Notes: generated by a model not told the origin, from the sequence alone. A DNA stretch of 64,000 nt from Candidatus Deferrimicrobiaceae bacterium (GCA_963725055.1 CAVRXE010000004.1:7808-71807), one strand, 5' to 3'. Positions 4,676 to 60,904 are shown, numbered from the stretch's first letter. A program made the numbers and translations.

Positions 4676-4710
4676 GGCGTTTGGGTGCGGCGAAGCGGGC
4701 GCGGGACGGG

Positions 4711-7689: not shown

Positions 7690-7737
7690 GGAGCGGCTCT
7701 CCTTGGCGAAGAAGTGACGATGGGATGCGATCTAATG

Positions 7738-11238: not shown

Positions 11239-11273
11239 TCCGCGAATGGAGGGCCGGTGGGACCCTGCGGATT

Positions 11274-19662: not shown

Positions 19663-19699
19663 CCCCGGGAATCCTCCCTGCGAAGCTCCGATCCTCCCC

Positions 19700-20044: not shown

Positions 20045-20069
20045 CTTCCTCCTCCTTTCGGGTCTCTGC

Positions 20070-28402: not shown

Positions 28403-28560
28403 CGAACGATTTCTCCCTTTGATTGCCTCATGCCTTGAAGTCCATAATGAATCGACATCCGGAGAATGTTCTTCTTTCATACTGGCACGCCGCACTGTTT
28501 GCTACAAGAATCGCATCCCATCATTGGAAATTCCGTTCAATTCCTGCAAGGAGGAATCCC

Positions 28561-32364: not shown

Positions 32365-32456
32365 GGAGAGTGTCGCCGCAATCGATACGACCCCACCCCC
32401 CCGGCGCGGCGCCGGACGCCGGGCGTCGGATAGCGAATTTTCCGCCGGGCTTCCCC

Positions 32457-35303: not shown

Positions 35304-35367
35304 GCGCGCTCTCCTTTTCTGCCGGTTATGAAATCGGAGCATCTGTACGTGGTTGACCGCGGAAAAA

Positions 35368-38712: not shown

Positions 38713-38740
38713 CCGTCGTCTCCGGAATCTTCCGGCCGGG

Positions 38741-40079: not shown

Positions 40080-40330
40080 CCTTCCCTCCTCCCTTGTCCC
40101 TCTTCCCCTTCCTCTCCCCCTCCTCCCTCCTCTCTCCTCCCCCCCCCCCCCCCCCCCTCCTTCTCCCCCCTCCCTCCTTCCCCTACTCACCCCCTCCCTC
40201 CCCCCCCTCCTCCCCCCTCCCCCCCCCTCCCCCCCCCTCTCTCCCCCCCCCCCCCCCCCCCCTCCCCCCCCTTCTTCCCCCCCCCCCCCTCCCCCTTCCC
40301 TCCCTCCCCCCTCCTCCCTCCCCCCCCCCC
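40080..40330. repeat. 251-nt polypyrimidine (plus strand) / polypurine (minus strand) low-complexity tract
   Basis: Only three purines in 251 nt (g40096, a40185, a40189). C runs of 19 nt (40139-40157) and 20 nt (40243-40262) are interspersed with CT/CCT/CCCT units. Confidence 0.95.
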
Positions 40331-41491: not shown

Positions 41492-43871
41492 TCATTCTGG
41501 GTGGGGTGGCTCAGGAGCTCGGAAACATACACGGGGCTCTTCCGCGGGAAGAGCCTTTCCAAAACCACGGCCAGCGCCGGCAGAGCGGTCATCGCCATGA
41601 TCAGGTTCACGATGAACATGAACGCCAGGAGCTTCGCCCATGTCCGCCTGGAACTTGAGCGGCGAGAACGACCAGGTGACCACACCGACTGCCAGGGTGA
41701 TCGCCGTGAAGATGGTCGCCATCGCCTCGAAGGGAGCGCATGCTCCATCGCCTGTGAAGATCGGATAACCCCTGGCCAGGTGAAGCTGCAGTCGGTTATA
41801 GATGTAAAAGGCATAATCCACGCCGATCCCACGGCCAGCACCATCACGGGGAGGGTGGCGACCGTGAGCCCAATCTTCAGCTCCTTCATGAACCAGTAGC
41901 CGATGAACGTGCCGACGGTCAGCGGCAGACAGCAGGCGATCATGGCCCGCAAATCCCGGTAGGCGAGGAAGACCAGGAGGAGGATGGCGGCATATACGGA
42001 GAGCATCATCGGGAAACTCGCTCTTCTCCACCTCGTCGTCGATCGCCGCCAGCACCCCCGCGTTGCCCGCCGCCAGCCGTATCTTGACCCCTTCCAGATC
42101 GTGCGTCTTCGAAACTCCTTGACGGCCTTGATCACGCCGTTGATCGTCGTTGCCTTGTGGTCGGTCAGGTAGAAATGGGCGGCCACCATGGTGCAGTCCT
42201 TGTTCATGTACCCGCGAAGCCGGCCGATTTCCGTGTTGAGCGCCCCGTAGTTCCCGGGATCGATCGGCACGACCGACATCTTCGGGTTCCCTTCGTTATA
42301 ACCTTCGTTATAGATGCGAAGCTGGTTGGAGTAGGAGTCGATGGACATCACGCCCGGCACGTGTCGCCATGTGCCAGGTGAAATCATCCACGAAAGCGCC
42401 GAGCGCCGACATTGCCGGTCCGAGTCGGGGGGCGATTCGAAGACCACCGTCAGCCAGTCGAGGCCCATGTCGTAGTTCTGGCGATGGCGACCGCGTCGCG
42501 GTTGAAGCGGGCTTCGGGCCGCAACTCGGGGGCCCCCGGCTGCAGGGTGCCGATCACCCGGTCGCGGCTCTGCCACACCGCCACCGCGAAGATCGCCGCG
42601 GTGATCGATCAGCACGATGAGCGGAGTTCCTCGGCTCGGCCACCGCGGCCAAGCGCGCGCAGCCAGCGGGAGCGGTGCTCCCGCTTGAGCATCGCCTTGT
42701 CCGCATATTCTTTCGTGAATTGAAAGCAGGAAGCCGCCACAGGGAGCATGACCAGGTTGGTGAAGATCTTGTAGCCGACCCCGATGGAGGCCGTTACCGC
42801 CAGTTCGCGCACCATGGGGATGGGGATCCGGACCAGGGTGATGAACGAGACAAAAGCGGTGATGAGCGCGAGCGTGCCGGGGATCGAGGAGCCCGGTGAA
42901 GCTGTGCCGCGCCGCCTCCTCGTGCTCTTCCCGTGGGAGAGCTCGCGGACGATGAAATTGATCTGCTGGACCCCATGGGAGACGCCGATGGCAAAGACCA
43001 GGAAGGGGACCAGCACCCCCAGCGGGTCGAGCCCGTAACCGAGCAGGCGCAGGGTGCCGAACTGCCAGACCAGCGAGGTCAGGGAGCAGACGATGGGCAG
43101 AATCGTGAAGCGCACGGAGTGGCAGTACCAGTAAACGGCCAGCGCCGTGAGCAAGGAGCGCGATGGCGCAGAAGCCGAGCACGCCTCGAGGCGCCGTCGG
43201 CGATGTCGCCGATCTGTTTGGCAAAGCCGATGATCTGGATCTCGAACTTCGCGTCTTCGAACTTCTTCCGGAGTTCCTCCAGCAGCCGGTTGTAGGCGAC
43301 GTAGTCGAGCTTCTTGCCGTCGCGGTCGAACTCGCTCAGTTCCGCCGTGATCATGGCGCTGGTCTGGTCGCGCGACACGAGGGTGCCGACGAAGCCGCCC
43401 TGGCTCGTGGCGCGCTCGATATTGGCAATAATCTCCGGAGTCAGCTGCTCGGGGGTGATCGTGCCGGAATCGATGACGGATCGGCCCGGAACCCCTCCTC
43501 GGTGATTTCATTCACATAGCTGTTGGGGGTCCAGAGGGACTGAACCCCCAGCCGGTCGACATTGGGCAGGAAATGCACGGCCTGGGTGACATCGTAGAGC
43601 CGGGTGAGCGCCTCTTTGTTCCAGATTGTCCCCTTCCTGCGCCTTGACGACGACGTTCAGCCGGTTGGCGCCGAACAGATCGTCGCGATATTTCTGAAAG
43701 GTCTGGACGTACTCATGGCCGATCGGCAACTGCTTCTCGAAGCCGGCGGACATCCGCAGCTGGAGCGCGAATACGGCCATGATCGCAGTGAAGACCCCGA
43801 TCGCGCCCAAGGTCAGCCAGCGATTGCCGAAGAAGAATTCCTCCAGATTGTGCTACGAGATTGTTCAACAC
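41492..43871 (-). pseudogene. RND/MMPL-superfamily transporter, many frame disruptions
   Basis: NLEEFFFGNRWLTLGAIGVFTAIMAVFALQLRMSAGFEKQLPIGHEYVQTFQKYRDDLFGANRLNVVVKA, ...TAELSEFDRDGKKLDYVAYNRLLEELRKKFEDAKFEIQIIGFAKQIGDIADG, TM-rich stretches (LVPFLVFAIGVSHGVQQINF...) and LLAFMFIVNLIMAMTALPALAVVLERLFP in different frames. The ends are approximate. Confidence 0.7.
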
Positions 43872-43981
43872 GCAATTCTTTTCCTCTACCCGGGAGTTCG
43901 GGCCAAGTCCGCACTCCGGTGTAGCTCTAGTGGTTATTGTCGCGGTCCGGCGCCTCGATTGAGGCGCGACCCGTGCCGGTG

Positions 43982-45709
43982 TCAGAAGTTGCGGGTCACG
44001 AACCCGCCGATGAAATCACGGTCGCCCAGCGGCTGGCGGAGCTGTTTCCGCCGAAGTAGTTCGCGTAGTTGATCCCCGCCTGCCATTTGGCCGGGTTCAT
44101 GTTGAAAAGGATATAGGTGTTGACCGATTTGGCGCCTTCCAGGTAGTTGGCAACGAGAGTCGGCGTATTCCCGCCACGGAATGGAAGAATGTCACGCCGG
44201 GGATGACCTGCCAGCCGGGGATGATCTTGCCGTCGTATACCGAGTTGAAATCGACGGTATAGCCGAGCGAGTTCGTGTCCCCGTCCCGGCGGTGCCGAGG
44301 ATAAGACCCGCGGTAGCCCGAGGTCTGCCGCTGAAGAGCTCGTTCTTCCAGAACCAATAGCCGGCCGCGGGAGCCTGCGTTACGTTTTGCCCGCCGATCG
44401 TCCGGTCGTAGCGCTGCTGCAGGTAAGGGTAGCAGATGTCCACGGCTTCAGCGGTCACGTGGCGGCATTCGCACCCAGGAGGTCGAGAAACCAGCCATGA
44501 TCGCCGGGGGTAAGGGTGAGAATTCCCGTCAGGTGAAACTGGAACTTCTGCTGGTCGATCCACCCGGGCAATCGACCCCGACGGCGGTCGTTGGAGATGC
44601 AATCCAGCGGTCCCCCCTGGCCGAAGCAGCCGGTCAGGGCGACCGCGTCCTTGGGACGGTAGGACAGCTCCCAGCCGACGGCCCAGTTACCCACCGGGAA
44701 ATTCGCGCTGACGCCGTAGAGCTGGCGATTCTCCAGAAACGTCCACTGGGCCTGGCCGACTGGCCAGCAAATTCAGCACCGGCAACTTGTCATGGTAGTT
44801 CATGAAGAAGAGCCCGAGATCCAGCGGCGATTCCTTCCGGCTTGTAGTGCAGGGCAACGCCGAACTGCCCGCTGTTTTTCGGCTCTTGTCGTTCGAGAAA
44901 GGGCATCGGGATGGAGTTGGCCGTGGAGGATCGGGATATTGGATCCAGTACCGCCGAAGATCACGAAGTTCGTTGGGGTTGGGATGCCAGTGTAAGGAAC
45001 AGAGGAATCCTCCCCTTGTCAAAATGTCCGCCGACGGAAAAGTAGGTGCCGACCGGCGGCACACGGCTCCTGTTCCACATCGACCTGGTAGTAGGCCTCG
45101 ATGTTGAAGCCCTTGCCCAGCCCGCTCGGGACGCTGACATCGGCGCGGGTATCACGGCCTCTTTGAGTTGCGTGCCGGGGACGAGGAGCTTCTGGATATC
45201 GAGCGCGTTGGTGAGTTGATGCCGCCGATGCGCGAAGATGCTCTCGCCCCAGCTGATCACCTGATTCCCCACCCGGACCCGGGCGCTCTGGTCGCCGATG
45301 GTGAACTCCTTGCTACCCAGAGATCCAGCAGCGGTAGATCCCGGGCAGCCTGGCCTTTGGCTCCTTCGCGAGTGGTGTCCGCGGCCGTCTCCGTTGCCAT
45401 GAAGTCGTAGAGAAGGTGCCGCGCGCCATGAACTTGTACGATGAGGGGAACTGCAACAGCAGTTCGGGGGTGAGCTTCAGGTAGGTGGCGTAGGCTCGCC
45501 CTTCCGGTAGTTCAGGTTGCCATCGTCGCCATTTGACCATTGGGCGGTATTCGCGTTGGGGTGTAAAATTCGGGTCGCCCACCAGGCTTGCGGCTCGGAT
45601 TGACGACGCGGATTCCATAGCCGACGGTCGCCTGCGTATCGAGCGATCCCTTGATCGAATCGGTTACATTAAACTGGAACGCATGGGCGGCGTCGCACCG
45701 CGCCGCCAT
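43982..45709 (-). pseudogene. DUF1302-family outer-membrane protein, many frame disruptions
   Basis: AHAFQFNVTDSIKGSLDTQATVGYGIRV, GNQVISWGESIFA...NALDIQKLLVPGTQLKEAVIPAPM, GNWAVGWELSYRPKD, and the C-terminus PLGDRDFIGGFVTRNF-stop (TGA at 43982-43984). No clean signal peptide is recoverable. Confidence 0.65.
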
Positions 45710-45797
45710 GACCGCACATCATGAATACCTCTGAAATCTCATCGGATTACCCCTCTTTGATTAACAAGCGGCTGCTCACGTCGCAGCGGCTCCCCTG

Positions 45798-47176
45798 TCA
45801 CCGCTCGCTGATTACCGCAAGGTCTATTCCGCCGTGTAGTAATCCGTCCTTGAAGCGCGATCGTTCGCTCCTCGGGATACCACCTGAATCCTTGCCCGAG
45901 GCCAACGGCGACTGGTCCGGACATAGCGGCCGCTGATCAGGTCGTATTGCACGAATGGTTAGAGGTCGAAAGTCCCGCCCAGTTCCCAGACGGGATGGGG
46001 AATCCTTCCGCGACCTTCCAGAGCTTCCCTTGGCGTCGTAGTCATCCGCCACCAGCGCCAAGCCAGCTGTCCTCGTCGATATAGAAGATCCTCTTCGGCG
46101 AGAGTGCCGCATCCCCTTCTTCACGGTCGCCTCCACCACCCAGACGCGGTGCAGCTCGTAGCGGCGGTAATCGGGCTCAGGAATTTCGGCAGGAGCACGT
46201 CGTGCAGCTTGGCATTGAAGTTATACATCCCGAAGGAGTTGTACGGGACGTACATTTCCTTCTTCCCGACGAGCTTCCAGTCGAACCGGTCCAGATTGCC
46301 GTTGAATATCCAGGGCTGATCGAGGGTGTACTGGTTTTCAAAGCCGATCTGCGGTGAATCGTAGGCATAGGAAGGCATCCGCCGGACCCGGCGCTGGCCG
46401 GGGAAGTAATAGCTGGTTTCGTTCGGCCCTTGCCGAAGTAGTAGGTCTGAACAATCGCCTGCCCGGCGAGAGCGGGCGGTGACTCATAGGCAAAGTAGAT
46501 GCTGTAGATGGGTCATTCACCTGGGCGGGAGTGGTTGCCCCCTTTTTCCCCCAGGGAAGAAGACGGTCTGGGGGCCGTGGGTTTCTATCCATTCCGTGCT
46601 CCCCGGTCGCGGCGAGGCGACCGTGTGGGTATCCGGCCATTCGACACCCATGCCCCGGTAGCGGGTCATGGAAATTCCACATGGCTTCCGACCCGTTTTT
46701 CGGGATGGGAAACGGAATGCCGGGGAGAAAGGCCGTCTTTCAGCGACCAGCCATCCGCGCCGAGTTTGGCGCTTGTCGCATTCTTTCTGGTGTTCGCCTC
46801 GATCGAAATCCGGGAAGCCGGCGTTGCGGTGGGTGGGGTACACGTCCATCTTGTACCCTTTGGTCTGCTTGATGAACTGCACCTGACCCGGACTCAACTT
46901 GTCCTGGTACTTGTCGACATTGGAGGCGTCGATGGAGAACAGCGGCTTTTCGGCCTTGTATTTCGAGTAATCGCCGCGGTACTTGCCATAGGACCACCCC
47001 GCCACGGGACGTCCTTCCCTTCCCAGGCGGGGATCGTTCCTTCCTTGTTCCCCCCCTTTTCCGCCCCCGCGTAGTTCAGCTCTTTCCCCAACCGGGCCAC
47101 ATCCTGGGGCGAAGCACCCCATGCCGTTCCTGCTGCTGCCACGATGAGCGTGATCACAACCAAATCCTCTCATCAT
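45798..47176 (-). pseudogene. DUF1329-family (LolA-like) periplasmic/lipoprotein, many frame disruptions
   Basis: GGAGGAG then ATGATG at 47171-47176. The text includes VVITLIVAAAGTAWGASPQDVARLGKELNYAGAEKGGNKEGTIPAWEGK, KYRGDYSKYKAEKPLFSIDASNVDKYQDKLSPGQVQFIKQTKGYKMDVYPTHRNAGFPDF, and FENQYTLDQPWIFNGNLDRFDWKLVGKKEMYVPYNSF. The 3' end is uncertain (45739-45826). Confidence 0.65.
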
Positions 47177-47482
47177 CTCCTCCCCTCCACCGTAAGGATT
47201 GCTTTCCGATGCATAGAAACCAACGGCACACCGACCAAATTCTGAATGCTTGTCATCAGGCAAAACGGCATCATGAACAAAATCAGCAAACTTCGTTCCA
47301 ATGTTGTACCATGATCACAACTAAACGCAAAATATATCAATAAGTCACTGTTTTATAATATAAATACTGTTTATAAAACGATAAGTCATGCTATTTTCCG
47401 GCTCTATCCTTCCTGCTAATTCCCTAAATTGAGACGAAGTTCTGTAACGCTGTCTCAAATTCGATCAGTCCCATCCCGCTTA

Positions 47483-48220
47483 TCACCCGTACTGCTCCCT
47501 CAATATTTCCCTCAGGGTGTCCAGATCAGCGTCGGGGAACTCTTTGAGCAGGCATGCGATCGCGCCCGAGACCCGCGCGGCGGCAAAACTGTTTCCGCGG
47601 AAATTCCTCTCCCGTGGGAGACCCGGCAGGGAGCGGGGAAACGGGGAAGCAAGACACTCGCACGGATTGTCCGGGCGGTACAGCAACTGATCCTCCCTGA
47701 GCCGGCCGTCTCCCTTCACGCCGATGACCGAATCGTAGGAGGCCGGAACGCTTGCCCCCTTCGACCCGTTCCGCGCGGCCGCCACCAGGATGATCCCTGC
47801 CCTCGCCGCATCGCGGCACAGGGCGCGCAGGGTAGGGGCGTTCGGCGCCGCCGCCATCCCCAGGCTGAGATTCACCACCCGCGCCCCCGCCTGCAGAGCA
47901 TAGGACAACGCCCCCTCCAGAACGTCCGGTGTCGTGGCGAGGGCGCCGTTGAAGACCTTGAGGGCGAAGAGATCGGTTTCCGGCGCCACGTGACGGATCA
48001 CCGCGGCGATGGCCGTTCCGTGACCGGACGTGTCCTGATAGTCCGGCCCCCGATGGACCGCGCCGTCCTCGCCGCGATAGATCCTGGCCCCGTCGATCCT
48101 CCCTCCGACGTGGGAGTGCCGCGGGTTGACGCCCGAGTCGACGACGACGACGCGGACTCCTTTCCCTGCGGGAGTCCCGGAAGGGCGGGCGCCCCAGGGG
48201 ATCGCGCGCCTTCTACGCAT
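47483..48220 (-). CDS. qhpE: subtilisin-like (S8) serine protease, QhpE-type leader peptidase
   Basis: Uninterrupted frame. The triad context is VVVVDSGVN (Asp), SGHGTAIAAVI (His) and GNSFAAARVSG (Ser). It is small, has no signal peptide, and its ATG at 48220 overlaps the qhpF stop by 8 nt. Confidence 0.8.
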   Translation of the reverse strand: MRRRRAIPWGARPSGTPAGKGVRVVVVDSGVNPRHSHVGGRIDGARIYRGEDGAVHRGPDYQDTSGHGTAIAAVIRHVAPETDLFALKVFNGALATTPDVLEGALSYALQAGARVVNLSLGMAAAPNAPTLRALCRDAARAGIILVAAARNGSKGASVPASYDSVIGVKGDGRLREDQLLYRPDNPCECLASPFPRSLPGLPRERNFRGNSFAAARVSGAIACLLKEFPDADLDTLREILREQYG

Positions 48221-49955
48221 GGCTTCCCTCCGGATCCCGCGCGCCGTCGGCGCAGACGCGAAGGAACGATTTGTACGCACCCCGCTGTTGCATCAGTTCC
48301 TCATGGGTTCCCAGGTGACTGACCCGCCCGTCCGAAAGGACCACGATCCGATCCGCATCCCGGACAGCGTGGATCCGGTGGGTCACGATCAGGGTCGTCT
48401 TCCCCTCCATCGTCTCCTTGATCGCGCACCGGATGCGATCTTCCGAGAGGAGGTCGAGGAAGGAGGTCGCCTCGTCGAGAATGAGAATCTCCTGGTTCGT
48501 GCAGGAACGCCCGGGCAAGTGCCACCCGCTGCCGCTGCCCCGCGGAAAGGGACAAGCCCCGCTCGCCGGCGACGGTCGAAAGACCGCGCGGCAGGGAGCG
48601 GACGAACTCCGTCAAGTTGGCCTTGGCGATGGCATCCGCGATCCGCGCGGGGTCGGCTTCGGGCGTTCCGTACCGGATGTTCTCCTCGAGGGTGCCATGG
48701 AAGAGGTACGGTTCGGTGGAGACCAGTGCGATCCGCCGCCGGAGCGTCGCGCGGCGAGCGCGTCCCAGGGGGACCCCGTCGAGCCGGATCTCCCCGCCTT
48801 GCGGCTCGTAGTAGCGGAGGAGCAGGTCCACGAGGGTCGATTTCCCGACGCCGCTCTCCCCGACGAGCGCCACCGTCCTGCCCGCGGGGAGGGTCAGCGA
48901 CATGCCGTCGAGGACACGGGCCTCGCCGCCGTAGGCGAAGACCACGCCGTCAAAGACGATCCCTTCCTTCAGGGAGACGAACTCTTCCGCTCCTTCAGGG
49001 TCGTCCTCCGCGGGGACGTCGAAAAACTCGAATACGCGCGTAAGCGATGCCCTTCCTTTCCGCAACGCCGCGTACTGGCCGAGGAGGTTCTGGATCGGCG
49101 CGATCACTTGCATCTGGAAGGCGGCGAACGCCACAAGCGTCCCCACGGAGATCGCGCCGTCCCGGACCAACCGTGCCGCCGTAGAGGAAGGCGAGCGTGG
49201 CGGAGCACCCCAGCACGAACGAGGGGATCCCGCGGGACAGGGAGAAGATCGTCTGGAATCGGAGGACGGAGCGCACCAGCGACTGGTTCTCTTCCCTCGA
49301 ACCTCCGCAGTCGGTGGCATTCCGTGGCGCTGGACCGCACCAGTCGGATTCCCGTGAAGGTGTCGATGATGCGGGTCCCCACCGCCGCGTTCTTTTCCCG
49401 GATCTCGCGGCTCATACCCGTGATCACGTTGCGGGTCAACCAGAGGCCAAGCACGCCCAACGGGGACGAGGACATTGCTCACGAGAAAGAGAGACCAGGA
49501 CATGGCGACGAGGATGGCGGAGGCGACGACGAGCCGGACGGAACTGGTGACGAACGCCATCGGGACGTCCACGAGAATCCCCGGACCTCCACCATGTCGT
49601 TGTTGAGCCGCGCGACGATCTCCCCCACCCGCGTCCTCCCGAAGAAGCGCATCTCGGCGCGCTCCAGATGATCGAAGAGGGCGACGCGCATGGCGACGAG
49701 GATCTTCGACGCCCCACGCGTGTAGAGATAGCTGCTGACGCCGCCGAGGACCATCCCCGCGGCGGCGTAAAGAACCATGGTGAGGAGAAGGGGGCAGAGC
49801 GCCGCCCAGTTCCCGCGGAGGATGACGTCGTCCACCAGCCTCTTCGACAGGAACGGGGCGTACAGGGAAGCCGCCGTCGCGAGAAGGGAAAGGGCAAACG
49901 TCGCGGCGAGAATCCCCCTGTGCCGGGTACGACTAATCTCCACAAAGTATGCCAT
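48213..49955 (-). pseudogene. qhpF: ABC exporter (fused permease-ATPase), QhpF-type, about 4-5 frame disruptions
   Basis: N-terminal TM region MAYFVEISRTRHRGILAATFALSLLATAASLYAPFLSKRLVDD.... The NBD has VALVGESGVGKSTL, LSAGQRQRVALARAF, ILILDEATSFLD and TLIVTHR. Confidence 0.8.
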
Positions 49956-49963
49956 CCGCCTTG

Positions 49964-51002
49964 TCACGACGCCGCTTCCCGGTAGTAGCAAATGTAGCGC
50001 GCCTCGCAGAATTTCGGCGTGTTCCGGAGCGCTACGGCCTTGGGGGGTGCCCGCTTCCTCCCGGGGGGGCTCCCCGCTCCACCAGGTCGAGGACCCCGCG
50101 AACCACCTGGAGGCTCACGAGCTTCCGGTAGCAGGAAGTACCGCGCCCGGAGATCTTGAGGGAGGTCACCCCCGTGCGGGCGAGGTCGAAGAGCGCGCAG
50201 AGCCCGCAGGGACCGTTCGGGATCCCGCCGGGATTCATCGAGTTGCCGCAGCCGTTCTGGAACCAGACCCAATCCTTGAACGCGCCCATCAGCTCCCGCG
50301 CCCGCTCCCCTTCCGGGCGGGACATGGATCCGCTGGCTCTCCCCCCAGCGAAAGGACACGGTATGGGACCTCCGGCAGCCCGCACGCAAAGGGCCCCGAC
50401 GCTCCGGTGCGTGGTCATGCAATACCCTTCCTCGAAGACGCACCCTTCGTTCAGGACGAACACCTCGGTCTCCAGCCGGCCCGCTGCCGTATCGCAAAGG
50501 GCCGCGATGTCCGCCACACCGAGGCTGCGGGGGAAGATCACCCGCCGGACCCCCAGCTCCGCCAGGAAATCGACCATGCCGGGGTTGAGCGTCGCCATCA
50601 CCGAGGCCGGCGTGGACGGAGAGCCCCGGGAAGGCGCACCGCAGCGCCACCAGGAATCCCACGTCGGAGACGATGACGCCGTCGATCCCGGACTCCCGCA
50701 CGAGCCGGCCGATCACGGGAAGGAGGAACTCCTGCTGTTCCGGCGTGTAGTAGGGGGTGTTGAACGTCACGTGGGACAGGGATGCCGAAGGCATGGGAAC
50801 GCTCCGCCAGGAGGGAGACGTCGTCCCGCTGAACCAGGTTCCCCACCACCGGCCCCCTTCGATTGAGCCAGAAGGCGCCACCGTACCGATCGAGCCATTC
50901 TCGGGGAACGTAGCCGCAGAAGAACTCGCCCGCCCCGTTCTCGGCGAGCATCTCCACCTCTTCGGGGTTGCTGACCGGTACGGTGAGCTTCATCTTCGCC
51001 AC
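49964..51002 (-). pseudogene. U32-family protein, UbiU/RlhA/TrhP-like, about 3 frame disruptions
   Basis: MAKMKLTVPVSNPEEVEMLAENGAGEFFCGY..., ...GIDGVIVSDVGFLVAL..., ATLNPGMVDFLAELGVRRVIFPRSL, EVFVLNEGCVFEEGYCMTTH (C-X6-C) and GVTSLKISGRGTS. It ends 8 nt before the qhpF start. Confidence 0.65.
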
Positions 51003-51959
51003 CCATGACCGTCGCCCGGTACGGTGACGACGGTACCGTCGACCTGCCGGGAGGATGAAATCCGTCCAAGGATTCTCCCGGTGATGGAGGGCGGCACGTT
51101 GTGGTAATACGCGTTCCCGAGATTCAGGAGATTTTTCTCCTTCCCGTTCCCCCCGGGAACGGGAAGGAGGAACTCAACGGCGTACTTCCGGCACTCCGAC
51201 CGGCAAGGAGCGCCCGGGATGAATTTTTCTCCGGGTTCCCGGTGCATCGCCCCCAGCAGGCAGGCGCGACCCATGGTGACGAAGAGGTACGGAAAGTGAA
51301 CCGATACTTTTTCGGACCGGTCCCCCTCGACTCGTCCGCCTCGAGAGGCTGGAGGAACGGGTCGACTTCCCTGCGTCCGATACCGTACCGCGCCATCAAG
51401 GCCCGGAAACCCGGGGCGAGTTCTCCCGATCGGCAGAGCGCCGCCCGGGCGGCCGATCCGCGCCTGCCGGGAATCGAAATAGTCCCGCGAGCCGGGGATC
51501 GCGGAGCATCTTGTGCGTCAGGCGGCCCAGGACGATCGTGAGCCCCGGGTGGAGGGATCTCAGGCCGTGAACCGTCCCCCAGTCGTTCGCGACGACTTCG
51601 GACTCTTCCACGCCATCCAGCGCCCGGACCGCATCCTCCGCCTTCGCGAGGCCGTCCCACGAGAGCGGCGGCAGGACGAGGGACAAGGCGAGTCGCCCCT
51701 CCCGCGTCGACACGACCCAGGAGGCGATCGCCCTGGGCGTCGGGAGGAGCCGTTCACACGTCTCGTTGCCGACGTACACCCGCGACGGTACCGCTCCGGG
51801 AAGGTGCCGAAGGAGCGCCTCGGCGAGCGCGTCGTGCGCATCGCCTGATGCGGGGCCGTGCAACGCTTCCCTCGAGGGAAGCCTCCCCGCGAAGGACCGC
51901 GGGCGGCGGGGCGGCGAGGAAGGGGAAGGAGAGTCCCACCTCCACGCAGTGCCCCGCAC
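50990..51959 (-). pseudogene. U32-family protein, UbiV-like, about 3-4 frame disruptions
   Basis: ...SRVYVGNETCERLLP..., SEVVANDWGTVHGLRSLHPGLTIVLGRLTHKML, and FPYLFVTMGRACLLGAMHREPGEKFIPGAPCRSEC (C-X17-C-X3-C). The start is uncertain (51939-51959), and the stop overlaps the next U32 gene by 13 nt. Confidence 0.55.
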
Positions 51960-52016
51960 CCTCCCGCGGGGACGCCTCCCGGTGCTGCCGGCTCAGGAGC
52001 AAACGGCCGCGCCCCC

Positions 52017-53100
52017 CTACCGTTTCTGGACGCGGAAGTGCGTGAGGACCGCGTCTCCCGGGGTGTCGATTCTCTTCAACAGCTTCATCGTTTCCGAGTC
52101 GTAGATCAAGATCGTGTCGCCGCCGCCGCCAAGGTACAACTTCTTCCCGTCGGAACTGATCTGGATCGTGTAGTAGCTCTTGTCCAGGTCGGCGGCGGTT
52201 TTCAGCACCCGGTTCGTCGCGAAATCCCTCTTCTCCACCGTGTTGAGGACGGTGTAGTAATACTTGCGGTCGGGGGAGATGACTCCCGAAAACTGGATGT
52301 AGAAGGGCCCGATGTCGGTCACGAGCCTCATCGACCCCTCCGTGCTCTTCTTCCGGAGATCGACCGGACACCCTGGTAGATTAGGTTGTTGTTGCTGTTC
52401 TGACTGCCGACCAGGATCATCGCCATCCCGGACTGGTCGTGGAGCCGCCAGATGTTCAGGGAGATCTGCGGGTCGACGCCGGTTGTCGTCGGGTGGCCGA
52501 TCCCGAGGAAGTTCACCTGGCTTCCCGGTCATGGGGTCGTAGAGGCGGCGAACACATCGCGACCGGTGACGTAGAATTCGCTTCCGTCGTACCCGAAGAA
52601 GATGTTCGTGCAGCCGCGCGGGATCTCGATCTCCTTCACGACCTTGCCGGTCGTGAGGTCCAGCACCAGCACCGCGGGCGTCATGTCGACGATCTCGTCG
52701 GAGAGCCACCGCTGCCGCAGGGAGAGGGCGTACAGCAGGTTCGGGTTCGCCGGGTTGAGTCGATGTCGAGAGTCCGGACCTTGACGTCCCCCGATCCCAT
52801 GCGGAACGTGCGGACGACCTTCTTCCCCGCCAGGTCGAGTCGTTCGATCTGCTGCCCCCAGTCGGTGATGGTGTAGACCTTGTCCAGGTCCCTTGGGTCC
52901 CAGGTGAAGTTGGTGACCTTCTTCCCCTTGGTTTCAATCGTCGCGCAGATGATCTCGTCCTTGTCGCCGTCAATGACGTTAAACTTGTTGTGGAGCATCC
53001 CCTGAAGGAGGATGTCCTTGCCGAGTGCCGGGGCGTTGCCCGAGGCGAGCAGCAGGGCCGTCCCGAGCAGCACCATCGCGAAAAAGACCGTTCTCTTCAT
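52017..53100 (-). pseudogene. qhpB: quinohemoprotein amine dehydrogenase beta subunit (beta-propeller), about 4 frame disruptions
   Basis: Signal peptide MKRTVFFAMVLLGTALLLASG. Also present are ...VTNFTWDPRDLDKVYTITDWGQQIERLDLAGKKVVRTF... and the C-terminus YYTIQISSDGKKLYLGGGGDTILIYDSETMKLLKRIDTPGD. The position directly after qhpC matches the qhpADCB order. Confidence 0.7.
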
Positions 53101-53120
53101 CGATCGTTCCCTCCGTGGGG

Positions 53121-53477
53121 TTATTCCCTAGTCGTTGATCGCGCCGCCGCGACCCACCACTCCGGCTTGACGACCTTGAGCTTCACCCAGTTCTTCATCG
53201 CCCGGGTGCAGTCGGCGTTCCAGTCAGGGTTGTTGTAGGTATCCGGCGCCTGCCCCGGCCACCAGCAGTACATGTCGGTGGTGCCGAACAGGTCCGTCTC
53301 GATCGGCGTGCACAGTCGCTTTGTGGAGCCGGTCCAGTCGTTCTCGTAGCCGGGGTTGAACACGGAAGTGCAGGTGTGCATGAAGGGGACGATCCCCTGC
53401 GCCTCCACGACCGGAGCGCCCGGGTCGGTCTTCTCGATCTTCCTGCCCTTGCGGTTGACCCCTTTCAGGTGCTTCAT
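53121..53477 (-). CDS. qhpC: quinohemoprotein amine dehydrogenase gamma subunit precursor (crosslinked, quinone-bearing small subunit)
   Basis: Uninterrupted 118 codons: a leader of about 29 aa (MKHLKGVNRKGRKIEKTDPGAPVVEAQGI) followed by VPFMHTCTSVFNPGYENDWTGSTKRLCTPIETDLFGTTDMYCWWPGQAPDTYNNPDWNADC.... The ATG overlaps the qhpD stop (ATGA). Confidence 0.85.
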   Translation of the reverse strand: MKHLKGVNRKGRKIEKTDPGAPVVEAQGIVPFMHTCTSVFNPGYENDWTGSTKRLCTPIETDLFGTTDMYCWWPGQAPDTYNNPDWNADCTRAMKNWVKLKVVKPEWWVAAARSTTRE

Positions 53478-54902
53478 GCGATCCCCCTTTCGCCGAGCAT
53501 CACGTCCAGAAACGTCGGCGTTTCGTTTTGTATGCGGACATAGGCTTGAAGACCCAGCAGGAACAGCTCCCTCTGATCCAACGGCAGTAGTGGACGGAAG
53601 GGGCGAAGAGGTCTCCGTGTCGGAGGTACGCGTCGTGGTAGCACCCCCCCGAGCAGAAGTTTTTCGCCCAGCAGGCGTCTCATGCGCGGATTCGCGGCGC
53701 CGCCTCGCCCCGTCGAGGAACCGGGCCCGGGCCTCTTCCCAGAATCCGGCTTCCGGGCCGCCGAACGAGTCCCCGATGCCGACGAGACGGTGGCACGGGT
53801 AGAAGGCCCCCGATGGGTCCACGGCCAGCATCCCGATCCCCGCCCCGCACGGATACGGCATCGGGTCCCCGCGGTGGATCAGCGCGAGGATCTGCGACAT
53901 GTTCGAGAATGCCGGGACCCGCCGTTCGCGGACGTCGTCCACATACCCGTCTGCAAGGTCCCGGAACCGATCGATCACCGCGCAGACCTCTTTCCTCGGT
54001 CAGCGCGACTGGACTCCCTTCCGCAGCGCTCGCCGGCGCGAAACCGACCTCGTCGAAACCGAGGCCGCGAAGGCGGTTGAACGTCTTCCGCACGTCGACG
54101 GCGCCGCGCCCGAGGGTCACGCGCGCGCCGCGACGGGGAACCCGTTTCTGTTTTCCATCAGGAGTTCGATCCCCCGCGTCACGTCCTCATAGGACCCTCT
54201 CCCCGACGCGTACGGACGGTTCCGATCTTGGATCTCCCGGGGCCCGTCGATGCTAAGACACACGGTGACTCCGTTCTCCTTCAGGAAACCAGCGATCTCC
54301 CGGGTGAGGAGGGTGCCGTTGGTGGTGATGGAGAAGGAGATCTCTTTTCCCCGTTCCCTCGCCATCCTGCGGGCCTCCCCGACGGCCGTTCCAATGAGGG
54401 GGGAAGCGCAGCAGCGGTTCCCCCCCAAAAAAGGTCACGGACACCTTCCGGTCCGCCCCGGCGCGTTCCAGCAGATACGCAACACCGCGGCGGAGCGACT
54501 TCCGGGGACATCTCCCGCGGCGCTCCTCCCCCATCCGCCGGTAGGGTGCACCCTTCCTCCCGGTCCTCGTAGCAGTAGCGGCACGCGAGGTTGCAGGAGT
54601 AGGTGAGCATCAGTACGAGTGTCCCGAGCCGCAGCGGAGGGTGGGCAACACGGTTGGCTCGCCTCCTCCCCAAACCCCTCTGCTTGAAGCAGGCCCGCCC
54701 TCCGGAGGTCCGAGAGGATCTCCGAAGGAAGGGCCGAATCTTCGGCAGAAGCAAGGGGAGACAAGGCCTCCCTCATCCCGTCGTCCATACGGAACAGCCC
54801 GCCGGTTTCGGCGGCGTATACGTACGCCTCCCCATCCGCCGTGAAGCGTCGGTGCGGGAGGAGAGAGGCGCCCGCGCCGCACGTACGCGCGATGTTTGCC
54901 AT
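53474..54902 (-). pseudogene. qhpD: radical SAM/SPASM thioether-forming enzyme QhpD, about 6 frame disruptions
   Basis: MANIARTCG...GEAYVYAAETGGLFRMD, LGTLVLMLTYSCNLACRYCYE (CX3CX2C), VSVTFFGGEPLL, ISFSITTNGTLLT. The SPASM part reads PYPCGAGIGMLAVDPSGAFYPCHRLVG and CWAKNFCSGGCYHDAYL...HYCRW. Confidence 0.85.
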
Positions 54903-54918
54903 GGCGTCCGTGCGCCCC

Positions 54919-56518
54919 TTACTGCACCGGTCTCTGGACGTACAGAGGAATGGTCGCGAGCAGGTATCCGCGGGCGAACAGCGTGCCGCCCCCGGGCGCT
55001 GCGTAGGAAGCGGTCACCCAGACGTCCCCCAGGTTGTTTTCCTGCATGAAACGCTTCGGGTTGGGGCCTTCGTCCCCGGGGGTGAAGAGCCCGTTCCGGT
55101 CGATCTTCCCGACGAAATCCACATCGTGATCATCGTTGGTGGCGGCGATCTCCACGACATTCCACGTGGCCGGTACGTGTCCGATCTCGATGTCGTCCCC
55201 GGTCCCCGCCGCGCCGTCGGCGCCCTTGCTGTACGACATGGCGTCGAACTGGACGAGCTGCTTCACGGCGTACCCCAGCCCGCCGGTGCGCGACATCGCG
55301 GGGGACGGCACGACCTTGATATAGTCGACGGCCGTGTAGACCGCGAAGACATTGTCGGCCGAGGCGCCTCCGGCGTTCGCGTTCCGGTGCCCGGTGGTCG
55401 CCTTGTCAGCGACATCCACGGCGACCACCACCTTCGTCGGCGATGCGGAAACGACGTTCTTCACGGTCACGCCTTCGCCCAGACTCACCTCTTTCGAGAG
55501 ACCGGTCCCGACGACCGTCACGGTCGCTCCCTTCGTCCCGGCCTTGAGCGCCTTCGGCATCACGGAGAGGATCCGCGGGCAGCTCCCGGCGAAGGCGCGG
55601 GTTTCAACACCGCGAAGCTCGAAGTGCGGGTCGTCAAACCGGACCCCCCTGAAGGTCGAACCATCCATCGAGATGTGGAAGACTTCACGGATCGGCTTTC
55701 CGGCCAGGGAACCGGACGCCCGCCACGCGTAGCCGCCATAGAGGGTCGCCTTCCCCGAGATCGGCAGCTTCTCCCGTTCTCAAACTCCACCGTTCCGGCG
55801 TATGTATAGAAGGCGTCTCCCGTCTTCTTCAAGTTGATCTCGCCTCCGTACGCCCCTTTCCCGGCCTGGTACCCGGCGACGGCCCACTTCCCCTCGCCCG
55901 CCTTCGGGCGCGACGCGCTCCACTGCTTCCATTCCGGAGTCTCCAGCGGGAACCGCTTCTGCAACTCCTTCACGCAGGCGGCCAACGTCTCGTCCCAGTC
56001 AAGGACGTCCTGGAGTTGGTAGGGCCACATCGGGAGGACGCCCGAGTGCATGTTGGCGAGTTTCGGCCAGTCTTCCGGGGAGCGGCGCTGGAGGGCGGTC
56101 TTCTCTGCGGTAGCCCTGTGGCACCGTACGCAGATGTCGACGATCACCTGGCTGTCCACCTTCTCCTTCGTGTCCCGCTTCTCGAGAGTGTAGGCATACC
56201 CCACCACCTCGGCGGGGGCCAACCCCTGCTTGTCGGAGAAGTAGAGGAGGAGTGCCTCCTTCTCCTCCTTGGTGATGGAGAGACCGTGGATCCGCTTGTG
56301 GCGCCACAACGTCTCCTCCCAAGCTTCCGGCACCTGCCGGAGGTAGGAGATCCGGGAGACCAGCCCCCCGTTGTTCTTGTGGCAGTCGGCGCACTTTTTC
56401 ACGACCAGGTCGCTTGAGACCGGAATCCCCTGGTCTTGCCGAGTGCAGTCCCGGCCCACGCCGTCGCCAGCAAGAATGCCAAGGCAACGATAAAACACAA
56501 TCCCATCTTCCTTCGCAT
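54919..56518 (-). pseudogene. qhpA: quinohemoprotein amine dehydrogenase alpha subunit (di-haem cytochrome c), about 3 frame disruptions
   Basis: AGGAGGAGAGTG then ATG, giving the signal MRRKMGLCFIVALAFLLATAWA. It has two CXXCH sites (KKCADCH, ICVRCH), RRSPEDWPKLANMHSG, and C-terminal Ig-like domains in ORF 54919-55668. Confidence 0.85.
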
Positions 56519-56791
56519 CACTCTCCTCCTCGTACAGTGGGATGATCGGGGGGAACACATCTCGTCTCGGGGCATGGCAGCAAATCCCGTTCCATCGGTT
56601 ATACGTTAATTTTTATTGCATGGAGAAGGCGTGCAATTCCTTAATTTTCAACATTAATATCCTGTTGGGATTAATTTTACAGTAAGAACTCGCAGTAGGG
56701 ATACTTCGAGGTTTCGATAACTCCGGGGGATCACAATTAAGAAACGATGTGTCAAAAACGGGAATTACGGCGGAAATCCGATGCGAAAATA

Positions 56792-57810
56792 TCATCCCCC
56801 GCCGAAGAGCATTCTACCGAGGAACCCGCCCGCCAGTCCCCCCATCATGCTGCGCATGAATCCGCCTGCTCCGTAAAGGGGAAGATCCCCGCGATCCGGC
56901 ATCAGAAGGTTCACGGGGCAGACCGGCAGATCCCCTGAATGCGCTTCGCGAAGGACGGAAGGAGCGTGTCGGCCTGACCGCGGGAAATTTTCCCCGCCAC
57001 GGCGATGACGAATCTCGCCTTCCTGGGTCATCCACAAAGACCCGGAAGGGATCGTTGCGTTGGAACAAGCCCGCAGTCACCTCCCGGTACGCCGGCAGTT
57101 CCTGCGCGATGCGCGCCTTTCGTCCGGAGGCCGCCATGCGCCGCGGGCGGCAGGAGCAGATAGTGGCCGGAGGCGGTTGCCGTGGAGAACTTCACCTCGA
57201 ATCCCGGGGCCAGGCACTCGTAGCCCAGCATCGCCCGTTTCTGGTAGAGGATCGATCCCTAGATCCTCCCCGGCAGGCCGTCCAGCGCCCTCGCCTCCTC
57301 CGGCGGAGCGCCGCTCCCGGGGAGAAGCGCGACGACCTCCGAGGCGATCCCGACGACGTCGTTCCGGGAGCCGTCTCCGGGCTTTGAACGGATGCGCACG
57401 GCATCCCTCCGCCACGGAAGAAGTCGGCCGACGTATCCGAGACGATCGCCTCCGAGGGAGGAATCCGGAGAATCTCCTGGTCCGGATACCGGTACTGAGA
57501 CCAGATCCCTGTAGGCGTCCCTGGGAGACGCCACCGGAAACAGCTCCAGTCGCACCTCGGACCCGGGTCTCGCGGTCCTGCCGAGGACGGCGACCGCCAG
57601 GCGTTCCATCCCGTACGGGAGAACCAGGCCGGCTTCCCCGTCGATCTCCTCGTAGAGGTTGTCGGAACTGAAGGTCCGCACGGGCTCGAGAAGTTTCCAC
57701 GCCCCTTTTGCCGCGAGGGGACCGAGGACGGGATCCCCGGTATCCGCCGCCCCGCCCGGTGGGACGGCGAACGCGAGGAACAGCAGCGCCGCGAGTGCAG
57801 CGTCTCGCAA
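56792..57810 (-). pseudogene. hypothetical exported protein, several frame disruptions, boundaries uncertain
   Basis: A possible TTG start gives the signal-like RDAALAALLFLAFAVPPGGAA, then AKGAWKLLEPVRTFSSDNLYEEIDGEAGLVLPYGMERLAVAVLG and later GYECLAPGFEVKFSTATASGHYLLL. I recognise no family. Confidence 0.3.
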
Positions 57811-57971
57811 ATAGCCTGAAGCATCGAGAGCGTCGATGCGCCGCGCCAGCAAGGCGCGCAAGTGAAGGCGTACCGGGAGAGTACGGCGAACTTGCGCAAC
57901 GAAGCTGGAGCGGATGCAGCGGCGCTCGAATGCCAGGATATTTGCGAGACGCTGCACTGGGAGGGCCGTCT

Positions 57972-59175
57972 TCATCCGGCAAGCCGTGCGTGGGCCCTTC
58001 GCGCGAGCCGCCCCACCGGAAGCCGCAGACGGCACGCCACGAGACACGCTTCGGCACGCCCCGCAGGCGGCAGCGTTCCGACCCGGGGGAAGGGATTCGT
58101 AGGCGGAGCGCGCGAGACCTTTCCTCCCGGTACCCCTCGAGGTACGTCAGCGCCCGGAGCACGTTCGGGACCTCGACGCCGCTCGGGCAGACCCCGCCGC
58201 ATGCCCCGCACAGACCGCAATGACGACCCCGATCTCAAGCGCATACCGGCCGAGGGCGACCCGGTCGGCGAGCGTGAACCGCTTGCCGCACGCCCCGAGG
58301 TTCTCCTCGACCTGGGCGTAGCTCGTCATGCTCGGAATCGTCGTGGTGGCAACGCCCGGGTTGGCGAGGACCCAGGCGAGCGCCGCCTGGTGGGGGGCTG
58401 AAACCCCCGGGGGCGACGCGTATCCCCCGGCCTGGGTTTTCATCGCGATGACGCCGATCCCCGGATGCGGCGACCGCCCGGATCGTATTCGAGAGCCCCT
58501 GGCTCATCCCGAGCGCAACCCTTCACCGTCGCCGCGACGCCCGTGTCGGAGCGGAAGTTGTACGCTACCAGCACCGTCTTGTAGAACCCGTGTTTCGGCC
58601 ACGGCCCGCAGGACGGTTTCCTGCCCGCTGTGGGTCGTAACCCCCGCCGCGCGGACTTTCCCCTGGTCGATCAGCTTATGAAGCGCCTCGAGGGCCCGCT
58701 CGTCGGTCACCTCGCCTTCGGTATGGATCCCGTGGATCTGGAGGATGTCGATCACGTCCACCTTCAGGGAACGGAGGCTGTTCTCCGTCTTGGACCGGAT
58801 CATCTGGTCCACCGGGGCATTGTGGACTTTCGTGGCAAGAACTACCTTGTCCCGGATCCCGGAGAGCGCATTCCCGACGATCCGCTGTTTGTCGCCCCCA
58901 TGTAGCAGTCCGCCGTGTCGACGTAATCCACCCCCCGCTCGACGGCGAACCGGATCACTTCCGGATCGCGAGTGGTCATCGCGCCGAACCCGATAGTTCC
59001 GACCTGGAACCCGGTCTTCCCCAGCGGCCGCTTGTTCTGTTGCGTGCCGGGCGAAGAGTCGGTCGCTCTCCGAAGCGCTCCTGCGGGATCCCGGGCAGCG
59101 TCGTCCCCCACCGCTGACACCTGCCGCCGCCCCCATCATCCGAAGGAAATCCCTGCGGGTCGTCCTGGATCGCAC
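57972..59175 (-). pseudogene. Tat-signal aldo/keto reductase with a C-terminal 4Fe-4S ferredoxin-type motif, several frame disruptions
   Basis: GGAAGGAGGG then GTG, giving RSRTTRRDFLRMMGAAAG (twin-arginine). AKR text is KRPLGKTGFQVGTIGFGAMT, GVDYVDTADCY and LKVDVIDILQIHG. The C-terminal HCGLCGACGGVCPSGV is CX2CX2CX3CP. Confidence 0.7.
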
Positions 59176-59505
59176 CCTATGTCCCTCCTTCCAGTACCGG
59201 AGGAAGAGCCGCCGGCCGAGGCGCGGCACCTCCCGATGGGTGAATCCGTTCAAGGGGGATTATACCCCGGACGCCGTCCCCGAAAGAGATCGCTTGCGGA
59301 TCGGGAACCAAGGTGGTATGGTTGCGTCAGTTCAAATATCCCAATACGCAATCCTCTCCCCCAAGGGTCCTTTCGAAGGAGCAGCCCGGCACCCGGCCTG
59401 GGCCATCCAGCTTCTCCCGAGATTTCACCATGCGGAAGATCGGACGGGCACACTGCCCCGCCCACCGGTTGTGCTTGGTGAAAAAAACGTCAGGAGAAGA
59501 GAGAA

Positions 59506-60889
<1,384 letters not shown>

Positions 60890-60904
60890 AATAAAAAGCA
60901 CGTT

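Follow-up and report, generated by a model that had tools for sequence, protein, structure and literature searches.

The closest described counterparts of the locus considered here are the qhpADCBEFGR loci of Paracoccus denitrificans and Pseudomonas putida (PDB 1JJU, 1JMX; QhpG, PDB 7CTQ), which encode quinohemoprotein amine dehydrogenase (QHNDH), an enzyme whose small gamma subunit, QhpC, carries the cofactor cysteine tryptophylquinone (CTQ). In the canonical qhpABCDEFGR system, qhpG is an essential member, and its product is a flavin adenine dinucleotide (FAD) monooxygenase that puts two O2-derived oxygens into Trp43 of cross-linked QhpC (PMC7876137). We analyzed a 64,000-nt stretch of DNA from a Candidatus Deferrimicrobiaceae (MBNT15) bacterium, the whole of which is referred to as the window, and found that its minus strand holds eight genes between positions 47483 and 56518, in the order qhpA-D-C-B, U32X, U32Y and qhpF-E. 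Judging by its sequence, this block is an operon for a periplasmic QHNDH. The identification of a qhp locus is correct and, alone, ordinary; the value of the locus lies in an apparently recurrent exchange of the O2-dependent cofactor hydroxylase for a UbiU/UbiV-like protein pair, and in a gamma subunit that lacks the CTQ cysteine.

The window shares with the Paracoccus and Pseudomonas operons the A-D-C-B gene order, which the initial annotation of this DNA had already pointed out, together with the three thioether pairs, the cofactor Trp and the two haem motifs. Unlike these operons, it has neither qhpG nor an AraC-type qhpR, carries two U32-like genes between qhpB and qhpF, and is preceded by a sigma-54 promoter. 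Its gamma subunit is without Cys37 and has a loop that is one residue longer, and its QhpB, QhpD and QhpE score under their equivalog cutoffs.

A second group of relevant systems consists of U32 proteins, which include O2-independent, prephenate-dependent hydroxylases (PMC6747719, PMC10990095). UbiU-UbiV of E. coli (YhbU/YhbV) is, like U32X-U32Y, an adjacent and co-occurring pair of the U32 type, and it takes the place of flavin monooxygenases that need O2 to act on an aromatic ring (PMC6747719, PMC10990095), as we propose for the window pair. U32Y is a UbiU homologue in which the C-X6-C...C...C pattern of that protein recurs, and in U32X, as in UbiV, a first Cys lies far upstream of a C-Xn-C-X3-C arrangement. 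In contrast to UbiU-UbiV, the proposed substrate here is a Trp in a 12-kDa cross-linked peptide rather than a polyprenyl phenol, there is no UbiT, U32X has no detectable sequence similarity to UbiV, and U32Y has five extra invariant Cys and lies far under the UbiU cutoff. TrhP and RlhA, which are required for O2-independent hydroxylation of tRNA U34 and 23S rRNA C2501, respectively, resemble the window proteins in their U32 domain, Fe-S motif and macromolecular substrate (PMC10990095), and TrhP is the second-best NCBIfam match of U32Y, at low similarity (51 bits vs. a cutoff of 534). However, TrhP and RlhA act on RNA and as single proteins, whereas the window encodes an X/Y pair.

Other tryptophylquinone enzymes also depend on hydroxylation of a peptidyl Trp. 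These include LodA/LodB and GoxA/GoxB, in which CTQ is matured by a flavoprotein (LodB and GoxB are relatives of QhpG), and methylamine dehydrogenase (MADH) with MauG, which form tryptophan tryptophylquinone (TTQ). Unlike the system proposed here, their maturation requires O2 or H2O2 and involves no U32 proteins. Both TTQ and CTQ are cross-linked at Trp, and the partner residue is missing in window QhpC.

Alternation of QhpG with a U32-type pair

The initial annotation had called the locus complete-looking and a match to the known qhp gene set. This did not hold up in two respects, as QhpC has no CTQ-forming cysteine and qhpG is missing from the entire 64-kb window, where tblastn with three reference QhpGs, whose identity was confirmed by NF049967 (550 bits) and PDB 7CTQ (418 bits), gave a best E of 0.08. 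Nor was qhpG found in ten related Deferrimicrobiaceae loci. These relatives came from a survey in which a degenerate-pattern scan based on a QhpC alignment, covering one genome per GTDB species, yielded 80 qhpC loci. Ten of them (L001-L010) are from metagenome-assembled genomes of Candidatus Deferrimicrobium/Deferrimicrobiaceae with QhpC sequences 85-93% identical to that of the window. The whole 9-kb block is common to the window and these ten genomes at 73-85% nucleotide identity, and all eight genes can be read intact in L006. In L005 (10357-11946), qhpB appears to have lost its 3′ end and U32X its 5′ part, by deletion or fusion; the match to U32X is limited to 150 aa, and ~650 nt of window sequence are missing from this relative.

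Of the 80 loci and the window, 31 have QhpG and 21 the U32 pair; a single locus has both, and 30 have neither (Fisher test, odds ratio 0.05, p 1.6e-4; table [[1,30],[20,30]], the window's own locus omitted). To allow for the non-independence of related loci, QhpD sequences from 49 loci were placed in a tree, which calls for at least four switches between the QhpG and U32 types, the U32-type branches being the Deferrimicrobiaceae, an alphaproteobacterial pair, a Rhodocyclaceae locus and an acidobacterial clade. The loci with neither are mostly truncated or hold only qhpADCB. The association was also seen from the side of the pair: five U32X homologues chosen solely for their long contigs all proved to lie in qhp loci, and in four of the five a PF01136 gene directly follows U32X. 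In the fifth, L084, a Uma2 gene stands between U32X and the U32Y match, the latter being a gene cut at the contig end and outside the Pfam scan. L084 is an acidobacterial-type qhp locus that also contains PemK and PIN toxin-antitoxin genes between qhpA and qhpD and a zinc-ribbon gene before U32X (features at 4415-5880, 9489-9983 and 10963-11595).

The sole locus with both systems, L064, is on the complete chromosome of a Motiliproteus. Its QhpG gene (6782-8050) is upstream of qhpA and a genuine U32X (19433-20312) directly follows qhpE; the examined sequence ends inside U32X, short of any U32Y. By analogy with E. coli, which does the same for ubiquinone, such a two-route pattern would be expected of a facultative organism. 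The region of QhpC near the cofactor Trp is alike in U32-type and QhpG-type relatives (e.g., L012 vs. L049), and thus the substrate of the two hydroxylase types looks unchanged.

The U32Y family extends to cultured denitrifiers, and the same U32X-U32Y pair is present in QHNDH loci of Aromatoleum and of Thauera linaloolentis, which offer cultured, genetically tractable hosts. On the Aromatoleum contig, an AraC regulator gene is followed by qhpA-D-C-B, a porin, an aldehyde dehydrogenase, U32X and U32Y, so that the pair is beside qhpADCB, and neither QhpG nor, in contrast to the window, qhpE or qhpF was found within the 21 kb examined. The Rhodocyclales loci further differ from the window in having an AraC regulator, in a QhpC that keeps the CTQ cysteine (Rhodocyclaceae locus L076), and in the location of the pair, which follows an aldehyde dehydrogenase gene and precedes a cytochrome c assembly gene. 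The latter encodes a Cytochrom_C_asm (CcsA/CcmF-like) protein of 724-732 aa in both Thauera (L090 3490-5688) and Aromatoleum (L091 11040-13214). The title of Schmitt et al. 2019 (J Bacteriol 201:e00281-19; cited in PMC11231019 and PMC10413684) reports that, in A. aromaticum EbN1, the anaerobic breakdown of amines begins with QHNDHs. To produce an active quinone enzyme under anoxia, a cell would need a hydroxylation that is independent of O2. Deferrimicrobium (MBNT15/Deferrimicrobiota) is itself inferred to live in anoxic sediments and peat as an iron reducer and facultative anaerobe (PMC9386147).

U32X and U32Y as a candidate tryptophan dihydroxylase

Both genes between qhpB and qhpF had been labeled U32 in the initial annotation, which offered no interpretation of them. 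The label is right for the second, U32Y, which has a genuine U32 domain (PF01136, 67 bits for the window fragment), but needs amending for the first, U32X, a remote paralogue of U32Y with no Pfam match in 20 of 20 family members and no NCBIfam match for the L006 protein. U32Y aligns with E. coli UbiU over 284 columns (hhalign 99.1%, E 1e-18), and this comparison equates its cluster motif, C-X6-C-X10-C-X~44-C (C187, C194, C205 and a fourth Cys near 250; invariant across lineages), with the UbiU ligands C169, C176, C193 and C232. Five further Cys of U32Y are invariant (C29, C265, C268, C330 and C336 in L006 numbering); they are located in GPCxLC and C-x5-C-YY motifs and suggest a second metal site particular to the subfamily. 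In profile-profile comparison, U32X matched U32Y over 139 columns (hhalign 93.4%, E 2.5e-7). The invariant Cys of U32X, C82...C246-X18-C265-X3-C269, form a C-Xn-C-X18-C-X3-C pattern; that of UbiV is C-Xn-C-X12-C-X3-C, and the cysteine motifs of UbiU and UbiV bind [4Fe-4S] (PMC6747719). The four-Cys motif in each window protein is therefore described here as a set of putative [4Fe-4S] ligands. The two genes are adjacent, coupled by an ATGA overlap (50993-50990) and strictly co-occurring, and all sampled genomic contexts of U32X are in qhp loci. Neither protein has a signal peptide, as judged by inspection of the sequences by eye. At least 427 homologues of U32X exist, all annotated as "hypothetical," and at least 335 members of the U32Y family, annotated as peptidases.

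Taken together, the alternation with QhpG and the UbiU/UbiV-like features make it, on balance, probable that U32X and U32Y constitute an O2-independent peptidyl-tryptophan dihydroxylase that replaces QhpG. By analogy with Paracoccus and Pseudomonas, QhpD would introduce three Cys-to-Asp/Glu thioethers into QhpC in the cytoplasm. U32X and U32Y, as a putative [4Fe-4S] heterodimer, would then carry out the 6,7-dihydroxylation of Trp73 (Trp43 in P. denitrificans) of the cross-linked QhpC in the same compartment and without O2, the oxygen donor probably being prephenate, as it is for UbiU-UbiV in ubiquinone synthesis. As in the known systems, QhpE would remove the leader peptide, QhpF would export the peptide, and QhpA, with its two haems c, and QhpB would leave the cytoplasm by way of their signal peptides and assemble with the gamma peptide. 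The outcome would be a quinone cofactor made under anoxia by a facultative anaerobe or iron reducer.

The public annotation of U32Y as a "U32 family peptidase" or "collagenase-like PrtC" raises the alternative that the pair are peptidases, or serve some other accessory step in the processing of QhpC, QhpA or QhpB, with hydroxylation left to a QhpG encoded elsewhere. The 30 qhpC loci that have neither QhpG nor the pair nearby fit this idea, as they imply that maturation genes may be unlinked, and so does the location of the pair next to a cytochrome c assembly gene in Rhodocyclales. Nevertheless, the operon already has a leader peptidase in QhpE, the pair and QhpG are nearly mutually exclusive across at least four independent switches, both proteins keep four-Cys motifs of the kind that binds [4Fe-4S] in UbiU/UbiV (PMC6747719), and the characterized U32 members of known role are hydroxylases (PMC10990095). 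We therefore regard an accessory role as unlikely, although it deserves mention.

Similarly, since UbiU is the best NCBIfam match of U32Y, the pair could be a true UbiU/UbiV that serves anaerobic ubiquinone synthesis and is merely situated beside the qhp genes. This explanation is barely credible. The UbiU match (NF047963) reaches 61 bits against a cutoff of 440, UbiT is missing, U32X has no UbiV match, the pair shares 4-nt overlaps with genes of the qhp operon, and U32X homologues were found in qhp loci only. Moreover, many of the hosts are Acidobacteriota or Deferrimicrobiota, and ubiquinone is not known to occur outside the Alpha-, Beta- and Gammaproteobacteria.

Several observations weigh against a dihydroxylase role of the pair, or against the wider picture drawn here. 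We know of no U32 enzyme that acts on a protein substrate, and the role is deduced from co-occurrence and remote homology. U32X is tied to the U32 fold through its partner U32Y (the 93% hhalign match), as its profile retrieved only chance matches among PDB sequences and its comparison with the single E. coli UbiV or UbiU sequence was non-significant (hhalign E ~0.09). An AlphaFold2 model of a U32X homologue had a pLDDT of 67 and a pTM of 0.76, and its Foldseek matches in the PDB were generic TIM barrels (TM ~0.3). In 30 loci, neither QhpG nor the pair occurs within 10 kb, so either may be encoded elsewhere, and it is possible that the organism has a qhpG outside the window. U32-type loci also occur in some hosts that are generally regarded as aerobic (Blastocatellia). 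Because QhpD, QhpB and QhpE fall under their NCBIfam equivalog cutoffs, the enzyme may differ from classical QHNDH in its substrate or chemistry. Finally, the technical origin that we assign below to the frameshifts of the locus is inferred from alignments.

How tryptophylquinone could be made without O2 is unexplained, as QhpG, the sole known dihydroxylase, takes both oxygens from O2 (PMC7876137), and a U32 pair that alternates with it is a concrete candidate for such a route. The QhpG paper contains no discussion of an anaerobic alternative (PMC7876137). In the literature searched, no paper was found that joins U32 proteins with QhpG, tryptophylquinone or quinohemoprotein (Schmitt et al. 2019, which may comment on these genes, was outside the coverage), and, among the results listed, none matched that joins tryptophylquinone with prephenate, UbiU or O2-independent synthesis. 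U32 hydroxylases still have no in vitro assay, in part since the substrates of UbiU/V are lipids (PMC10990095). If U32X and U32Y do hydroxylate QhpC, the soluble, mass-spectrometry-friendly QhpC-QhpD complex could supply a U32 assay and a direct test of prephenate, and U32X, with more than 400 "hypothetical proteins" and no Pfam model, would gain a name and a function.

The gamma subunit and its cofactor

Window QhpC exceeds the cutoff of its family (NF037958 QH_gamma, 85 vs. 50 bits) and could be aligned to PDB 1JJU_C and 1JMX_G. In these alignments, the cofactor Trp is kept (W73 = Trp43), as are the three thioether pairs, C36/E45, C56/D62 and C71/D79, which are equivalent to Cys7/Glu16, Cys27/Asp33 and Cys41/Asp49 of 1JJU_C. 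In contrast, the position of the CTQ-forming Cys37 is occupied by Thr, within a loop (LFGTTDMYCWWP) that is one residue longer than LYGCADP-CWWP. Cys37 is missing in 11 of 11 members of the clade (the window and its ten relatives) and retained in all 70 of the other loci. An exhaustive HMMER search of 1.84 billion representatives gave, outside the clade, a single apparently genuine QhpC without the cysteine, the fragment P0187; two further candidates, P0199 and P0201, look like broken sequences, and P0149, a 2071-aa match to the QhpC profile, is a spurious hit to a low-complexity repeat protein. P0187 (L092 164-532; NLWGGGKACWWPNQVPD), on a 1.2-kb contig too short to give genomic context, is unrelated to the clade's proteins. 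QhpC of the clade also contains C90 ("NADC"), which is common to acidobacterial QhpCs that retain Cys37.

As the cross-linking cysteine is missing, the mature cofactor of this clade is probably not canonical CTQ, and the sequence of its gamma subunit suggests an undescribed cofactor variant. The same feature bears on another explanation, namely that the pair does not hydroxylate Trp but makes the Cys-Trp cross-link or performs the final oxidation to the quinone. The enzymes of the late CTQ steps are not established (PMC7876137), which leaves room for such a role. However, Deferrimicrobiaceae keep the pair even though their QhpC has no CTQ cysteine, which argues against a function in Cys-Trp cross-linking; the enzyme with which the pair alternates, QhpG, is the dihydroxylase; and U32X and U32Y have no signal peptides, although the late steps are believed to take place in the periplasm. 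A late-step function thus seems highly improbable. Extending the dihydroxylase proposal, it is conceivable, though we put it forward tentatively and with clearly less confidence, that U32X/U32Y is the first U32 hydroxylase acting on a protein, that it depends on prephenate and has repeatedly replaced QhpG, and that Deferrimicrobiaceae in addition make a novel tryptophylquinone, in which the link to Cys37 is either missing or replaced by one to another residue, such as Cys90.

Gene content, reading frames and surroundings

The genes named in the initial annotation were all found on the minus strand at the positions it had given (Table 1), and its identification of a QHNDH locus was borne out. 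Six of the eight genes could be named by NCBIfam scans of the raw, uncorrected reading-frame pieces, which matched QH_alpha (two pieces), quino_hemo_SAM/QhpD (at least five pieces), QH_gamma, QH_beta, an MsbA/HlyB-type ABC exporter and a subtilisin-like QhpE. Full-length proteins were obtained after frame correction, i.e., removal of indels guided by the relatives. Of the profile searches suggested at the outset, those for QhpA and QhpC gave scores above the cutoff, while QhpD and QhpB, like QhpE, had the expected family as best or only match but under the equivalog cutoff. Specifically, corrected QhpA matched TIGR03908 QH_alpha at 460 bits (cutoff 274) over profile positions 4-509 and has the four-domain QH_alpha architecture with both haem c motifs, CADCH and CVRCH. 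QhpD has TIGR03906 as its best match (373 bits, cutoff 453) and contains CNLACRYC (CX3CX2C) and the SPASM motif CWAKNFCSGGC, i.e., (C)DACWAKNFCSGGC, the first Cys codon of which is TGA in the window instead of TGC (53682-53680). The initial annotation had listed these four motifs, and all of them were located. QhpB has TIGR03907 QH_beta as its sole match (123 bits, cutoff 223; positions 8-336 of 338) and is 82-87% identical to the products of intact genes in relatives. QhpF matches MsbA/HlyB-type exporters over its full length (388 bits) and is 73-93% identical to its relatives, and QhpE is borderline (NF049966, 160 bits vs. a cutoff of 165). The place of qhpE and qhpF in the gene order is kept in relatives.

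Table 1. Window coordinates of the qhp genes, the elements upstream of qhpA and selected neighboring genes.
Feature	Position	Strand	Description
Conserved 32-nt box CCCGTTTTTGACACATCGTTTCTTAATTGTGAT	56730..56762	-	~150 nt upstream of the sigma-54 promoter; candidate activator-binding site
Sigma-54-type promoter TGGAAC-N5-TTGCT	56579..56594	-	Upstream of qhpA
qhpA	54919..56518	-	Di-haem alpha subunit, N-terminal signal peptide
qhpD	53474..54902	-	Radical S-adenosylmethionine (SAM)/SPASM maturase, Cys-Asp/Glu thioethers
qhpC	53154..53477	-	Gamma-subunit precursor, 107 aa in relatives
qhpB	52017..53100	-	Beta-propeller subunit, signal peptide; 5 frameshifting indels
U32X	50990..52002	-	UbiV-like partner, unannotated family; 4 frameshifting indels
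U32Y	49964..50993	-	UbiU-like U32 protein; 6 frameshifting indels
qhpF	48213..49967	-	ABC exporter, fused permease/ATPase; 7 frameshifting indels; GTG start
qhpE	47483..48220	-	Small subtilisin-like (S8) leader peptidase; reading frame intact
Two family-III CoA-transferases	37345-40075		Intact
Tungsten-type aldehyde:ferredoxin oxidoreductase (AOR)	33567-35342		Intact
ModE-like regulator, HTH_1 + TOBE domains	31597-33099		Intact
Aldehyde dehydrogenase	28423-30036		Intact

The tight coupling of genes in the block was likewise described correctly at the outset for qhpD/qhpC (ATGA, 53477-53474) and qhpF/qhpE (8 nt; ATG at 48220, stop at 48215-48213). In addition, U32Y and qhpF overlap by GTGA (49967-49964), the GTG start of qhpF lying over the stop of U32Y. 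For U32X, a GTG start at 51945 is likelier than one at 52002.

About 35 frameshifting indels within the qhp locus are unique to the window by comparison with 5-6 aligned relatives. They include four in qhpA (near 56432, 56116, 56109 and 55774) and seven in qhpD, and they interrupt every gene but qhpC and qhpE. This count of window-unique indels replaced a hidden Markov model of third-position GC (GC3) phase, which was too coarse in the densest regions. The stop of qhpC, TAG in all relatives, is TGG in the window, adding 11 codons and extending the frame to 53121. For this change (53121-53156 region) and the qhpD TGA (53680-53682), a substitution error and a real change are both possible.

The initial annotation had worried that the locus might be dead, and a decaying pseudogene array, in which the ~35 frameshifts, the qhpD TGA and the lost qhpC stop are real mutations, would account for the extent of the interruptions. 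The indels moreover go beyond homopolymers, with the neighboring base copied in 27 of 55 single-base insertions, and L081, a long-read contig of a related species (89% identical), is frameshifted too. L081 had been considered as a second assembly of the same organism and was rejected, as it belongs to another species. Against decay, the density of window-unique frameshifting indels is no lower in the unrelated genes on either side (~43-62.5 kb): the core has 35, the left flank 42 over 3.5 kb and the right flank 12 over 1.6 kb, whereas each relative had 0-4 over the same alignments. Expressed per kb, window-unique indels number 6-17 at 43-47 kb, 1-6 in the qhp genes and 5-12 at 57-62 kb, and insertions outnumber deletions by 74 to 52. 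Codon positions 1 and 2 diverge from relatives far less than position 3, as they do between intact relatives and as is typical of purifying selection, and removal of the indels gives proteins that all match intact orthologues over their full length. The window also contains, at 40080-40330, a 250-nt tract of only C and T with long C runs, located between the AOR/aldehyde dehydrogenase region and the qhp side, which looks like an assembly artefact and shows that such artefacts are present. Since the flanks are affected at least as much and the codon pattern looks like that of purifying selection, assembly noise is the likelier explanation. We consider it very probable that the disruptions are technical and regional (~43-62.5 kb) rather than decay of the qhp operon, and a dead locus quite unlikely. 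Noise across the entire window can be ruled out, as the genes at 17-43 kb are intact. The restriction of indels (1-17 per kb) to the right-hand third, at ~43000-62500, may be due to reduced coverage, a mixture of strains or a chimeric junction.

The initial annotation also proposed a link between the amine dehydrogenase and AOR and aldehyde dehydrogenase genes in the window. Both genes are present and intact; their linkage to the qhp genes is uncertain, as had been cautioned, because of the C/T-only tract and the different sequence quality of the two regions.

Upstream of qhpA, a 275-bp spacer is A+T-rich (GC 0.48 vs. ~0.65), in keeping with the earlier description. It contains a sigma-54-type promoter, the core of which (GGAA + TTGC) is invariant in 11 of 11 aligned loci, and the sigma-54 pattern matches the window twice vs. 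0.03 times expected by chance. Farther upstream is a 32-nt box that is unique in the window and near-identical in seven of the 11 loci (more diverged in L002, L004, L008 and L009), the rest of the spacer being variable. Rfam gave no match in the qhpA leader region or the box, a sigma-70 promoter scan gave nothing above chance, and an inverted repeat at 56615-56637 was dropped for lack of conservation among relatives. A crude motif scan of the window's six-frame translations, which is a weak test, revealed no AraC-type QhpR and so supports the earlier statement that this regulator is missing. With a conserved sigma-54 promoter and no AraC regulator, the sequence suggests that the operon is probably sigma-54 dependent rather than QhpR dependent.

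The second sigma-54 match, TGGAACGAAGTTTGCT (47285-47300, minus strand), is just downstream of qhpE and precedes a DUF1329-DUF1302-MMPL/RND operon that is syntenic in all relatives. In the alphaproteobacterial loci L012 and L026, a match to the MMPL stretch (41.5-43.8 kb) is likewise found upstream of qhpA. Approximately 30 kb away, at 24648-26342 on the plus strand, an intact gene encodes a sigma-54 enhancer-binding protein with a GAF sensor domain and the GAFTGA motif, and this protein is a possible candidate for the activator of both promoters.

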